Sequence record: NC_055780.1
DNA: 64,000 nucleotides
Direction: 5' to 3' (one strand)
Source: Escherichia phage MLF4
Shown: one piece after another, positions 408-42,587 of the stretch
How the letters are laid out: each line of letters begins with the position of its first letter
Numbering within the stretch: the first letter of the stretch is position 1
Program-made: the position numbers and the translations under genes
The notes under the pieces: generated by a model
What the model was told of the DNA's origin: nothing
What the model saw: only the letters and a program-made list of their open reading frames with translations
Databases searched by the model: none

Positions 408-733
408 TGACAGATACGCAACTTTTCGAATATCTTTATTTTTCGCCAAAAACTATTAAAAATAAATTGGTGAATCATTTTGAAATTTTAGCAAATAATA
501 ACATTTTGAGCGAATTTTATCCCAAGCAATACAAATTACAAAAAGGTGTATTCAAAGGATGCAGAGTTTTATGTACTGCTCCTAATGCACGGCTAATGAA
601 TAAAATTCCATATTTTACCATGGAATTTATTGATGGACCTTTTAAAGGATTAATTACGCAAAGTTTAATGGCATATGATTCTGAGCCGTTTTTAATTAAA
701 GAACAATCTTGGATAAATTTATTTTCTAATTGA
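404..733 (+). CDS. hypothetical protein (109 aa)
   Basis: ATG overlapping upstream stop (ATGATGA); weak SD; ORF-track ATG at 353 would overlap upstream gene by 55 nt. Confidence 0.35.
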
Positions 734-740
734 GGTTTAT

Positions 741-1103
741 ATGAAAGCATATCAAATTCTTGAAGGCACACACAAAGGTACTATTTATTTTGAAGATGGT
801 ATTCAAGCACGAATTATCGTTTCTAAAACCTTTAAAGAGGACTCTTTTGTAGACCCAGAAATTTTCTATGGTTTGCATGCCCGTGAAATTGAAATTGAGC
901 AACAGCCTGCAGTTAAAATTGAAGGTGGTCAACACCTGAACGTTAACGTTCTGCGTCGTGAAACTCTGGAAGATGCAGTTAAGCATCCGGAAAAATATCC
1001 GCAGCTGACCATCCGTGTATCCGGTTATGCAGTTCGCTTTAACTCTCTGACTCCGGAACAGCAGCGCGACGTTATCGCTCGTACATTCACCGAGAGTTTG
1101 TAA
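741..1103 (+). CDS. GrcA/YfiD-like autonomous glycyl radical cofactor (120 aa)
   Basis: ATG after TGAGGT; C-terminus carries glycyl-radical signature [12 protein letters not shown]; 3' half uses host-like codons. Confidence 0.7.
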
Positions 1104-18775: not shown

Positions 18776-19249
18776 ATGTTATTGACTGGCAAATTATATA
18801 AAGAAGAAAAACAGAAATTTTATGATGCACAAAACGGTAAATGCTTAATTTGCCAACGAGAACTAAATCCTGATGTTCAAGCTAATCACCTTGACCATGA
18901 CCATGAATTAAATGGACCAAAAGCAGGAAAGGTACGTGGATTGCTTTGTAATCTCTGCAATGCCGCAGAAGGTCAAATGAAGCATAAATTTAATCGTTCT
19001 GGCTTAAAGGGACAAGGTGTTGATTATCTTGAATGGTTAGAAAATTTACTTACTTATTTAAAATCCGATTACACCCAAAATAATATTCACCCTAACTTTG
19101 TTGGAGATAAATCAAAGGAATTTTCTCGTTTAGGAAAAGAGGAAATGATGGCTGAGATGCTTCAAAGAGGATTTGAATATAATGAATCTGACACTAAAAC
19201 ACAATTAATAGCTTCATTTAAGAAGCAGCTTAGAAAGAGTTTAAAATGA
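18776..19249 (+). CDS. 49: endonuclease VII, Holliday-junction resolvase (157 aa)
   Basis: N-terminus MLLTGKLYKEEKQKFYDAQNGKCLICQ and HDHELNGPKAG motif match recollection of T4 gp49. Confidence 0.85.
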   Translation: MLLTGKLYKEEKQKFYDAQNGKCLICQRELNPDVQANHLDHDHELNGPKAGKVRGLLCNLCNAAEGQMKHKFNRSGLKGQGVDYLEWLENLLTYLKSDYTQNNIHPNFVGDKSKEFSRLGKEEMMAEMLQRGFEYNESDTKTQLIASFKKQLRKSLK

Positions 19250-21063
19250 CAATTGAAAAAGAAATTGAAGGATTGATTCATAAAACTAATAAAGACCTTT
19301 TAAACGAGAATGCTAATAAAGATTCTCGTGTTTTTCCAACTCAACGGGACCTTATGGCTGGTATTGTGTCTAAACACATTGCCAAAAATATGGTCCCGTC
19401 TTTTATTATGAAAGCGCATGAAAGCGGAATTATTCATTTCCATGATATTGATTATTCCCCTGCTCTTCCATTTACTAATTGCTGTTTAGTAGATTTAAAA
19501 GGAATGCTTGAGAACGGATTTAAGCTTGGTAATGCACAGATTGAAACTCCTAAATCAATCGGTGTTGCTACTGCAATTATGGCACAAATTACTGCACAGG
19601 TTGCTTCCCATCAATACGGCGGAACGACTTTTGCTAATGTAGATAAAGTACTTTCTCCTTATGTTAAACGCACCTATGCAAAACATATTGAAGATGCAGA
19701 AAAATGGCAAATCGCTGATGCGTTGAATTATGCTCAATCTAAAACAGAAAAAGATGTATACGATGCATTCCAAGCTTATGAATATGAAGTAAATACTCTC
19801 TTTAGTTCAAACGGACAAACACCTTTTGTAACAATTACATTTGGTACAGGAACTGACTGGACTGAACGAATGATTCAGAAAGCAATTCTGAAAAATCGTA
19901 TTAAAGGTCTCGGTCGTGATGGGATAACTCCTATTTTCCCTAAGCTTGTTATGTTCGTTGAAGAAGGTGTTAATCTTTATAAAGACGATCCGAACTATGA
20001 TATTAAACAGCTTGCTCTAGAGTGCGCAAGCAAAAGAATGTATCCTGATATTATTTCAGCTAAGAACAATAAAGCTATCACTGGCTCATCTATTCCTGTT
20101 TCTCCAATGGGTTGTCGTAGTTTCTTGAGCGTATGGAAAGATTCGACTGGCAATGAAATTCTTGATGGACGTAATAATCTCGGTGTTGTAACACTGAATC
20201 TTCCTCGTATCGCATTAGATTCTTATATTGGAACACAGTTCAATGAACAGAAATTTATCGAATTGTTCAATGAACGAATGGATTTATGTTTTGAAGCTTT
20301 GATGTGTAGAATTAGTTCCTTAAAAGGAGTTAAAGCGACTGTTGCTCCTATTCTTTACCAAGAAGGTGCATTCGGGGTTCGTCTTAAACCTGATGACGAT
20401 ATAATTGAGTTATTTAAAAACGGCAGAAGTTCAGTGTCTTTAGGATACATTGGTATTCATGAATTGAATATTCTTGTCGGTCGTGATATTGGACAAGAAA
20501 TTTTAACTAAAATGAATGCTCGTCTTAAGCAGTGGACTGAAAGAACCGGATTTGCTTTTAGTTTATATTCGACTCCTGCTGAAAACCTTTGTTATCGCTT
20601 CTGTAAACTCGATACCGAAAAATATGGAAGTGTAAAGGATGTTACCGATAAAGGCTGGTACACTAACAGTTTCCATGTTTCAGTAGAAGAAAATATTACT
20701 CCGTTTGAAAAGATTTCTCGCGAAGCGCCGTATCATTTCATTGCGACAGGCGGTCACATTTCTTATGTTGAACTTCCAGATATGAAAAACAATTTAAAGG
20801 GTCTTGAGGCTGTCTGGGATTATGCTGCACAACATTTAGATTATTTTGGTGTTAATATGCCGGTAGATAAATGTTTTACATGCGGAAGTACCCATGAAAT
20901 GACTCCTACTGAAAACGGATTTGTTTGTTCTATCTGTGGAGAAACTGATCCTAAAAAGATGAACACAATAAGAAGAACATGTGGTTATTTGGGAAATCCG
21001 AACGAACGTGGATTTAATCTCGGTAAAAATAAAGAAATCATGCATAGGGTTAAACACCAATGA
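19246..21063 (+). CDS. nrdD: anaerobic ribonucleoside-triphosphate reductase (605 aa), uninterrupted
   Basis: C-terminal Zn site CFTCG..CSICG and glycyl-radical motif RRTCGYLG; single frame, no intron. Confidence 0.9.
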   Translation: MTIEKEIEGLIHKTNKDLLNENANKDSRVFPTQRDLMAGIVSKHIAKNMVPSFIMKAHESGIIHFHDIDYSPALPFTNCCLVDLKGMLENGFKLGNAQIETPKSIGVATAIMAQITAQVASHQYGGTTFANVDKVLSPYVKRTYAKHIEDAEKWQIADALNYAQSKTEKDVYDAFQAYEYEVNTLFSSNGQTPFVTITFGTGTDWTERMIQKAILKNRIKGLGRDGITPIFPKLVMFVEEGVNLYKDDPNYDIKQLALECASKRMYPDIISAKNNKAITGSSIPVSPMGCRSFLSVWKDSTGNEILDGRNNLGVVTLNLPRIALDSYIGTQFNEQKFIELFNERMDLCFEALMCRISSLKGVKATVAPILYQEGAFGVRLKPDDDIIELFKNGRSSVSLGYIGIHELNILVGRDIGQEILTKMNARLKQWTERTGFAFSLYSTPAENLCYRFCKLDTEKYGSVKDVTDKGWYTNSFHVSVEENITPFEKISREAPYHFIATGGHISYVELPDMKNNLKGLEAVWDYAAQHLDYFGVNMPVDKCFTCGSTHEMTPTENGFVCSICGETDPKKMNTIRRTCGYLGNPNERGFNLGKNKEIMHRVKHQ

Positions 21064-21530
21064 ATTATGATAGATTTTATCCTTGCGATTTTGTGAATGG
21101 CCCTGGTTGCAGGGTCGTTCTTTTCGTTACAGGTTGTTTGCATAAATGTGAAGGGTGTTATAATAAATCAACATGGAATGCTAGAAATGGTATTCCATTC
21201 ACTGGTGAAACACTAGAACAATTAATTGAATGTTTGAATAATGATTATATAGAAGGATTAACTATAACTGGGGGTGACCCTCTTTATCCTGATAACAGAG
21301 ACGTGATTCACTCTGTGGTTCAAACTATTAAAAATCTTTATCCCAATAAAAGCATTTGGTTGTGGACAGGATATAAGTTTGAAGATATTAAACAACTAGA
21401 AATGCTTAAATATGTTGATGTTATTATTGATGGGAAGTATGAGAAAAATCTTCCGACTAAAAAGCTGTGGCGAGGATCAGATAATCAGCGACTTTGGTCA
21501 AATACCGATGGGGTGTGGACACATGATTAA
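21060..21530 (+). CDS. nrdG: anaerobic RNR activating radical-SAM protein (156 aa)
   Basis: ATGA overlap with nrdD; CLHKCEGC (CxxxCxxC) cluster. Confidence 0.85.
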   Translation: MNYDRFYPCDFVNGPGCRVVLFVTGCLHKCEGCYNKSTWNARNGIPFTGETLEQLIECLNNDYIEGLTITGGDPLYPDNRDVIHSVVQTIKNLYPNKSIWLWTGYKFEDIKQLEMLKYVDVIIDGKYEKNLPTKKLWRGSDNQRLWSNTDGVWTHD

Positions 21531-41159: not shown

Positions 41160-42587
41160 GTGGTAGAAATTATTCTTTCTCATCTCATATTTGATCAAGC
41201 TTATTTTTCAAAAGTTTGGCCATATATGGATTCAGAATATTTTGAAAGTGGTCCAGCTAAAAATACATTCAAATTAATTAAATCCCATGTTAATGAGTAT
41301 CATAGCGTTCCATCTATTAATGCGTTAAATGTTGCATTAGAAAATAGTTCATTTACTGAAACGGAATATTCTGGTGTAAAAACACTTATTTCAAAACTAG
41401 CCGATTCTCCAGAAGACCACAGCTGGTTAGTAAAAGAAACAGAAAAATATGTTCAGCAAAGGGCGATGTTTAATGCTACATCTAAAATAATTGAAATTCA
41501 AACTAATGCTGAGCTTCCTCCGGAAAAACGAAATAAGAAAATGCCGGATGTTGGTGCTATTCCTGACATCATGCGTCAAGCATTATCAATTTCATTTGAT
41601 AGTTACGTTGGTCATGATTGGATGGATGACTACGAAGCACGTTGGTTATCTTATATGAATAAAGCTCGTAAGGTTCCATTTAAACTCAAAATTCTAAATA
41701 AAATTACTAAAGGCGGAGCTGAAACTGGAACACTGAATGTTTTAATGGCTGGTGTTAACGTTGGTAAGTCATTAGGATTGTGTTCATTGGCAGCAGATTA
41801 TTTGCAGCTCGGACATAATGTTCTTTACATTTCCATGGAAATGGCAGAAGAAGTCTGTGCTAAACGTATTGATGCTAATATGCTTGATGTTTCTCTTGAT
41901 GACATTGATGATGGGCATATTTCTTACGCTGAGTATAAAGGAAAAATGGAAAAATGGCGTGAGAAATCTACTCTCGGTCGTTTAATTGTTAAACAGTACC
42001 CTACTGGTGGGGCAGATGCTAACACATTCAGGTCTCTCTTGAATGAATTGAAGCTCAAAAAGAATTTTGTTCCAACAATCATTATTGTCGACTATCTAGG
42101 TATTTGTAAATCTTGCCGCATTAGAGTTTATTCAGAAAATAGTTACACAACTGTTAAAGCTATTGCAGAGGAATTGCGTGCTCTTGCTGTTGAAACCGAA
42201 ACTGTTCTTTGGACTGCAGCGCAGGTCGGCAAACAAGCTTGGGATTCTTCTGATGTTAACATGAGCGATATTGCAGAATCTGCCGGTCTTCCAGCAACAG
42301 CCGATTTTATGCTTGCGGTCATTGAAACCGAGGAGCTAGCAGCTGCTGAACAACAACTCATTAAGCAAATCAAATCACGATATGGCGATAAGAACAAATG
42401 GAATAAGTTTTTGATGGGTGTTCAAAAGGGAAATCAGAAATGGGTAGAAATTGAACAAGATTCTACTCCAACTGAAGTGAACGAAGTAGCAGGTTCACAA
42501 CAGATACAAGCTGAGCAGAATCGCTATCAAAGAAATGAATCCACTCGAGCTCAGTTAGATGCTTTGGCAAATGAATTAAAATTTTAG
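41160..42587 (+). CDS. 41: replicative DNA helicase gp41 (DnaB-like, 475 aa), GTG start
   Basis: GTG after AAGGAGT; Walker A GVNVGKS; N-terminus (M)VEIILSHLIFDQAYF. Confidence 0.9.
   Translation: MVEIILSHLIFDQAYFSKVWPYMDSEYFESGPAKNTFKLIKSHVNEYHSVPSINALNVALENSSFTETEYSGVKTLISKLADSPEDHSWLVKETEKYVQQRAMFNATSKIIEIQTNAELPPEKRNKKMPDVGAIPDIMRQALSISFDSYVGHDWMDDYEARWLSYMNKARKVPFKLKILNKITKGGAETGTLNVLMAGVNVGKSLGLCSLAADYLQLGHNVLYISMEMAEEVCAKRIDANMLDVSLDDIDDGHISYAEYKGKMEKWREKSTLGRLIVKQYPTGGADANTFRSLLNELKLKKNFVPTIIIVDYLGICKSCRIRVYSENSYTTVKAIAEELRALAVETETVLWTAAQVGKQAWDSSDVNMSDIAESAGLPATADFMLAVIETEELAAAEQQLIKQIKSRYGDKNKWNKFLMGVQKGNQKWVEIEQDSTPTEVNEVAGSQQIQAEQNRYQRNESTRAQLDALANELKF

Follow-up and report, generated by a model that had tools for sequence, protein, structure and literature searches.

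In Escherichia phage MLF4, gene vs.6 encodes an orthologue of the T4 spare part for pyruvate formate-lyase (PFL), and the half of the gene that encodes the glycyl-radical domain appears to have been overwritten from the grcA gene of the host, more than once. We put the probability of this reading at about 80%. The observation on which it is founded is an exact, uninterrupted run of 166/166 nt between positions 919-1084 of the window and E. coli grcA (the window being the whole stretch of 64,000 nucleotides of sequence record NC_055780.1 that was analysed). The gene is a mosaic, the tract is specific to the host, and it is younger than the split between the phage genera that carry it.

Gene vs.6 and its host-identical tract

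The window is a T4-like (Tequatrovirus) genome, and the open reading frame at 741-1103 lies in the conserved gene order vs.8-vs.7-vs.6-vs.5-vs.4-vs.3-regB-vs.1-vs-tk.4, which matches that around vs.6 of RB32 and T4. The stop codon of vs.6 overlaps the start of vs.5, and the putative ribosome-binding site overlaps the TGA of the upstream vs.7, which ends at 733 (Table 1). Using megablast, we matched vs.6 to 755 phage records, the best at 99.2%; their annotations read vs.6, GrcA, "autonomous glycyl radical cofactor" or, mistakenly, "pyruvate formate-lyase". Both the gene and what it does biochemically are textbook knowledge from T4 (vs.6/Y06I), and the basic finding is therefore an ordinary one.

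Table 1. Features of vs.6 and its surroundings, in positions of the 64,000-nt window
Feature	Position	Strand	Description
Putative ribosome-binding site, GAGG	732..735	+	5 nt upstream of the vs.6 ATG; function predicted from the sequence
vs.6 CDS (orthologue of T4 Y06I)	741..1103	+	ATG..TAA ORF, 120 aa, ~14 kDa GrcA/YfiD-type glycyl-radical cofactor
Phage-lineage 5' half, codons 1-59	741..918	+	AT-rich, diverged homologue of the GrcA N-terminal region
Host-identical tract, probably host-derived by conversion	919..1084	+	166 nt, 100% identical to E. coli grcA positions 200-365; encodes the glycyl-radical domain
GGT codon, Gly95, predicted radical glycine	1023..1025	+	RVSGY alignment; equivalent to GrcA Gly102 and PflB Gly734
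Unconverted phage-type tail	1085..1100	+	last six sense codons ACA TTC ACC GAG AGT TTG; E. coli has ACC TTT ACT GAA AGC CTG

A promoter and terminator scan of positions 1-2000 found nothing above background near vs.6 (7 sites against 6.4 expected). The only strong site in the scan was a sigma-70-like promoter at 1865-1893 on the + strand (TTTACT-17-TATAAT with an upstream TG), which sits ahead of the 153-aa regB ORF (1920-2381). Transcription of vs.6 is probably by read-through from upstream, no comparable promoter lying directly ahead of the gene. In the same cluster, vs.4 (1317-1583, + strand) matched the Pfam family Acb2_Tad1_hairpin (E=7e-20); its product is Acb2, the known anti-CBASS cyclic-nucleotide sponge of T4-like phages. 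We also noted a 118-aa variant of Vs.6 in which two residues of the EIEIE repeat are missing. It carries the NCBI label 'GrcA [Escherichia coli]', and the 167,969-bp contig on which it lies is probably that of a T4-like phage, misfiled under bacteria.

The segment of grcA that is identical to the tract was matched by all 5,426 complete E. coli genomes. When the whole window was compared with these genomes by megablast, the only match was at 919-1107, and no other E. coli-matching DNA was found in the 64 kb. Composition along the gene was sharply non-uniform. The GC content was 50.0% in the tract, 34.8% in the 5' half (741-918) and 34.6% in the window as a whole, and GC at third codon positions rose from 0.22 in codons 1-59 to 0.42 in codons 61-115. 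The tract is the GC-richest 166-nt stretch of the 64 kb; windows of this length that reach 50% GC make up 0.023% of the total, and every one of them lies at the tract. The gene thus combines a long block of host identity, a GC content of 50% against 35%, and breakpoints supported by the tests described below, as is looked for in a mosaic auxiliary metabolic gene. An assembly artefact is excluded, since hundreds of independent genomes contain the tract, the T4 reference among them.

Nucleotide identity of the tract is 100% with E. coli, ~90% with Citrobacter and ~87% with Klebsiella. We rejected pflB as the donor because its identity is only ~78% (145/186) and no exact run exceeds 35 nt. Next in GC content among the 166-nt stretches (49.4%) comes 42159-42367 on the + strand; it was considered as a second host patch and likewise rejected, as it has no match in the E. 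coli genomes. It is the Ala-rich part of a 475-aa ORF (41160-42587), which we take to be the gene 41 replicative helicase.

On either side of the tract, vs.6 is of phage type. The DNA of the 5' half aligns only weakly with grcA and is common to T4-like phages of Klebsiella, Enterobacter and Erwinia. In the tail, six positions differ from E. coli grcA (1085, 1088, 1091, 1094, 1097 and 1098), and all six differences are synonymous; beyond the stop codon of vs.6 no similarity to grcA was found. Because the 5' half is shared with phages that lack the host-like 3' half, vs.6 is a pre-existing phage homologue of grcA that was converted, and not a captured fragment joined to an unrelated ORF.

Among bacteria, grcA genes align collinearly from end to end, and their divergence is gradual: in another Escherichia species, the last 250 nt contain 2 differences, and identity is roughly 85-90% for the genes of Citrobacter, Salmonella, Klebsiella and Enterobacter. 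Since the bacterial genes behave in this way, and since the tract is specific to E. coli and has a host-type composition, the transfer is best read as one from host to phage. Informative-site tests, in which an old phage-resident copy and E. coli grcA served as the parents, put a breakpoint where the EGGQ codons begin (p=1e-9 to 6e-17).

A sequence-only reading of this DNA, made before our analysis, had already described a gene whose 3' part is richer in GC than the phage DNA around it, and this was borne out. Neither of the findings that it had named as contrary, low nucleotide identity to host grcA and a uniform composition, was obtained. It had gone on to suggest a chimera with a recently captured host segment. 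The recent host segment stands, at 100% identity to grcA over 166 nt against 78% to pflB, but what it entered was an existing phage homologue, so that conversion replaces fusion in that account. The same reading found the N-terminal half to differ from GrcA; it does, with only 35% identity over 40 aa, but this half is a diverged homologue of the GrcA N-terminus and not a foreign sequence.

Age and probable recurrence of the tract

We dated the tract relative to the phage genera. Tequatro-, Mosig- and Carettaviruses diverge by 11-13% in the 5' half of vs.6 and by 0-2% in the tract. The window and Carettavirus phiE142 differ at 20/178 positions of the 5' half and at 0/166 of the tract; counted as synonymous codon differences, the figures are 13/53 and 0/54 (p=4.6e-5). 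Beyond the tract, differences reappear at once in the tail and, on the upstream side, no more than about 8 nt from 919.

The right end of the tract varies among E. coli-type phages in the manner of a staircase. Phage-type bases are kept at six tail sites in the window, five in RB32, four in phage L097, three in fPS-2, two in T4 and one in OES_C-2, and other combinations occur in KIT03, L100 and the Mosigviruses. None of the sampled phages had a tail fully identical to E. coli, the closest being OES_C-2 with its one mismatch. Several variants cluster in the first ~18 nt of the tract, which suggests that the left ends are ragged too.

Host alleles are also distributed among the phages. Two polymorphisms are common in E. 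coli grcA, at position 225 (T/A) and at position 240 (T/C, C being the K-12 allele). The window, RB32, fPS-2 and phiE142 carry T/T, KIT03 carries 225A, and both JN02 (a Mosigvirus) and L099 (a Tequatrovirus) carry 240C; each shared host allele is a single SNP here, and four E. coli alleles were sampled in detail.

Klebsiella T4-like phages of about 165 kb (Wolf_ER13 and the IMG/VR phage L123) show the same mosaic architecture and the same left junction. GC content is 57% in their tract and 37% on either side of it, and here too the mismatches accumulate in the last codons. The donor was identified by a metagenome locus scan combined with an exact-sequence cluster look-up: the tracts of L123 and Wolf_ER13 share exact runs of 140 nt and 86 nt with a metagenome grcA whose protein is exactly K. 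pneumoniae GrcA, and Wolf_ER13 has both SNPs of the grcA allele L184. The grcA genes of GTDB representatives reached at most 88-92% identity to the Klebsiella phage tracts. These representatives alone would have missed the match, because grcA differs by ~11% even between Klebsiella species. In two Klebsiella phages, CPRSA (L090, 270-634) and L123 (301-659), the vs.6 frame is broken in the 5' half. In CPRSA, the gene is annotated as two CDS, the second of which encodes a 61-aa protein that consists of the radical domain alone. The broken frames could reflect sequencing error, decay or a short GrcA2/GrcA3-like form.

Across phage records, 637 reached 95% identity or more with the E. coli 3' segment and 106 with the K. 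pneumoniae segment (134 at >=90%), those listed for the latter being Klebsiella phages. Each set is only 80-90% identical to the segment of the other host. E. coli-type and K. pneumoniae-type tracts, with distinct alleles and distinct ends, therefore cluster by host as independent events would. Because host alleles and tract ends differ among phages, and because Klebsiella phages carry a K. pneumoniae-type tract, conversion appears to have happened more than once. It need not be constant: 345A, within the tract, is common to the Mosigviruses JN02 and p000v, and since some mutations in the tract are lineage-specific in this way, conversion would be episodic.

The host named by the tract is not always the host of isolation. 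Tequatroviruses from Serratia (PhiZZ30, H179), Citrobacter (PhiZZ23, H224), Yersinia (H218/H228) and Salmonella (H226) carry an E. coli-type tract, about 97% identical to E. coli grcA and about 87% to that of K. pneumoniae. In such phages, the tract may therefore record an E. coli history rather than the isolation host.

In a separate observation, the large phage contig L118 (UViG_3300008607_000007) shares a 56-nt exact run, in a C-terminal grcA-like part, with the grcA of L222-L224 and L066. Of these, L066 is titled Haemophilus sp., and the metagenome contigs L222-L224 are nearly identical to L063/L066; the run is absent from the sister contigs L115, L119 and L120. This case may be a third host/phage pair with the same kind of conversion.

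We propose the following course of events. The T4-like ancestor would already have had a complete grcA homologue. In E. coli phages, the radical-domain part would have been overwritten by homologous recombination (gene conversion resembling marker rescue) with chromosomal grcA as the template, starting at the first alignable phage/host codons (919) and ending raggedly within the last six. Extreme amino-acid constraint on the domain may maintain enough similarity between phage and host copies for recombination, and the perfect identity of a converted tract may ease further exchange. Exchange between T4 and homologous inserts on plasmids is established (marker rescue, the insertion/substitution system). 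T4 also degrades host DNA and carries modified cytosines, so exchange between phage and chromosome should be rare; phage DNA that was copied from a host template would carry its proper modifications. The recombination mechanism, the idea that the process is still ongoing and any adaptive value are what we infer from these patterns.

A stronger version would have the radical half of vs.6 evolve in concert with the grcA of the current host through repeated, ongoing recombination of the marker-rescue type. The spare part would thereby stay matched to the local PFL and PFL-activating enzyme (PFL-AE), and the gene would hold a record of the last host genus and even of its allele. The two host types do differ in protein sequence, for example ETLEDAVKH in E. 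coli and ETLLDAVEH in Klebsiella. We advance this version tentatively and consider it somewhat less probable than its negation. A counterpoint to recurrence is that all phages examined have the same left junction, which could equally mean one founding event per host genus followed by spread from phage to phage.

Under that alternative, one capture was made by an E. coli phage and one by a Klebsiella phage, the tract was passed on by ordinary recombination when T-even phages infected the same cell, exchange with the host did not continue, and the variants arose by subsequent phage crossovers and point mutation. The shared left junction of all E. coli phages agrees with it, as does the inheritance of 345A within Mosigvirus (JN02 and p000v), and T-even phages recombine very frequently. 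However, the stretch over which the genera hardly differ has, at both ends, the same limits as the stretch identical to the host, and tracts exchanged between phages would have no reason to end there. Furthermore, three phage variants fall on the two common E. coli polymorphic sites and have the same base as the host, and no sampled phage offers a converted parent with a fully E. coli tail, while the host gene is present at every infection. We consequently regard a single capture per genus as unlikely, though it is the most serious competitor of repeated conversion.

Constraint on the radical domain and predicted function

A second alternative is that the T-even ancestor captured grcA once, long ago, after which extreme purifying selection, extending to codons, held the 3' half while the 5' half drifted. 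The amino acids of the domain are indeed almost invariant across phage and bacterial copies. Other phage lineages nevertheless contradict this account. T5-like, Aeromonas, Krischvirus, Erwinia and Slopekvirus-like phages have the same or nearly the same 60 aa, but their synonymous sites are saturated: over the 166-nt tract they are 63-87% identical to E. coli grcA in nucleotides, and the longest exact run that each shares with any of 81 bacterial genes is 17-36 nt. Judged from these sequences, their copies have the look of an old phage-resident grcA. Because such lineages keep the amino acids at this level of nucleotide identity, selection does not fix the synonymous sites. An Enterobacter phage has the identical 60 aa at only about 83% nucleotide identity, so that amino-acid identity to GrcA alone is not proof of recent capture. 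In addition, the tract in the window is of E. coli and not of a generic enterobacterial type, Klebsiella phages carry the Klebsiella version, and GC content and codon usage in the tract are host-like inside an AT-rich genome. An ancient capture preserved by selection is thus highly improbable.

The protein itself was assigned by profile and structure searches. Pfam Gly_radical matched Vs.6 residues 60-101 (E=2.7e-18, 66.9 bits, cut-off 22.2), so that the 120-aa product has the build of a small stand-alone protein (about 120-130 aa) with a C-terminal glycyl-radical domain. The top NCBIfam match was TIGR04365 spare_glycyl (E=1.6e-45). Its score of 154.4 bits does not reach the equivalog cut-off of 170, because the N-terminal half has diverged. 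In the PDB, the best match by phmmer was the NMR structure of E. coli GrcA (6owr, E=9.5e-42, residues 22-120 aligned), and the next was PflB, in which 697-759 aligned with Vs.6 residues 58-120, glycine loop included (E=5e-26).

RVSGY is found at residues 92-96, in a loop that aligns with those of GrcA and PflB, and the role of the radical glycine has been established for the family (PMC8683613). Vs.6 residues 61-120 match E. coli GrcA residues 68-127 at every position (60/60), in agreement with the earlier impression that the C-terminal 60 residues are essentially GrcA. Homology extends into the N-terminal region, at E=6e-6 over the 40 aa mentioned above, and in GrcA this region is needed for efficient radical installation (PMC13450708).

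In PMC8683613 and PMC13450708, which refer to Wagner et al. 2001, T4 Y06I is described as receiving its radical from PFL-AE and restoring PFL cleaved by O2, like YfiD. Given about 97% identity to T4 vs.6, the Vs.6 of the window would by orthology be a PFL spare part as well. The radical-SAM activase of the host, PFL-AE (PflA), would place the radical on Gly95, and the activated protein would dock on host PFL that O2 has cleaved at Gly734, so that activity is regained. Vs.6 could in this way keep fermentation of pyruvate to acetyl-CoA and formate going during infection in micro-oxic habitats. The benefit would lie in preserving fermentative energy metabolism in the gut on oxygen intrusion, when host protein synthesis is already shut off.

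NrdD is likewise a glycyl-radical enzyme cleaved by O2, and the sequence-only reading had proposed Vs.6 as a spare domain for the phage NrdD, activated by the phage NrdG; both are encoded in the window, as it had stated (NrdD at 19246-21063, NrdG at 21060-21530). A role of vs.6 in nucleotide metabolism had also been a speculation of Nolan et al. 2006 (PMC1524935). We dismiss this proposal as the least credible of all, as BLASTP of Vs.6 against the NrdD of the window gave E=2.5 with glycine loops that did not align, the C-terminus of NrdD (…RRTCGYLGNPNERGF…) is unlike Vs.6, the PDB matches were GrcA, PFL and PFL-like enzymes with no NrdD at E<=1, and the domain is that of the host's PFL spare part, PFL rescue being the activity reported for Y06I (PMC8683613).

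Comparison with known systems

The archetypal virulent phage T4, a destroyer of host DNA, has a block of perfect host identity, and in the window it is the only block of this kind. It appears to be renewed from the host chromosome and to change with the genus of the host. The tract offers a compact natural system in which recombination from host to lytic phage can be measured, and a marker of host history for T4-like phages. It also illustrates that, in highly constrained domains, amino-acid identity alone is a poor sign of recent transfer. In the open-access literature, we found no papers on DNA identity between vs.6 and grcA or on host tracking in T-even phages, although a prior mention elsewhere is possible; the population pattern, a tract that follows the host, may be new.

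A practical caution concerns the placement of grcA as a qPCR marker. The gene has been chosen as a conserved Straboviridae marker for PCR/qPCR typing of E. coli phages (PMC12845203). Primers in the 3' 166-185 nt of vs.6 would amplify E. coli DNA, because this part is identical or nearly identical to the host chromosome.

The nearest relative of the window's gene is T4 vs.6/Y06I (NP_049730), which has the same locus and length, 3 aa differences and about 97% nucleotide identity. T4 vs.6, the YfiD-like ORF to which the sequence-only reading had pointed for comparison, proved to be the orthologue and itself has an E. coli-identical tract (165/166). In the window, the tract ends five codons earlier than in T4, so that six phage-type synonymous sites are kept against two. 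T4 Vs.6 also has R73H inside the tract, unlike the window.

E. coli GrcA (YfiD; 6owr; TIGR04365/IPR011140) resembles Vs.6 as a stand-alone protein of ~14 kDa with RVSGY, and shares with it the C-terminal 60 aa and the 166 nt. The presumed activase, PFL-AE, and the presumed target, O2-cleaved PflB, are the same. Vs.6 differs in an N-terminal half that is 7 residues shorter and only about 35% identical, and in being encoded by a lytic phage, presumably under phage expression signals. Vs.6 residues 58-120 also correspond to residues 697-759 of the PflB C-terminal domain (1h16), but at the nucleotide level with only 78% identity.

Host-phage mosaicism of the photosynthesis genes psbA/psbD in marine cyanophages was reportedly described by Zeidner in 2005, and mosaicism of cyanophage psbA is the closest analogue of that in vs.6. 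In cyanophages, psbA and psbD are auxiliary metabolic genes of T4-like phages, with patchy %G+C, intragenic recombination between host and phage that has statistical support, and clustering by host (Sullivan et al. 2006, PMC1484495). In contrast to those genes, vs.6 shows no sign of transfer from phage to host. Its tract forms one block with sharp limits that matches a named host gene perfectly; the tract occurs in T4 and its relatives and is replicated in two host genera. Furthermore, the product of vs.6 is a repair part for a fermentative enzyme and not a photosystem subunit.
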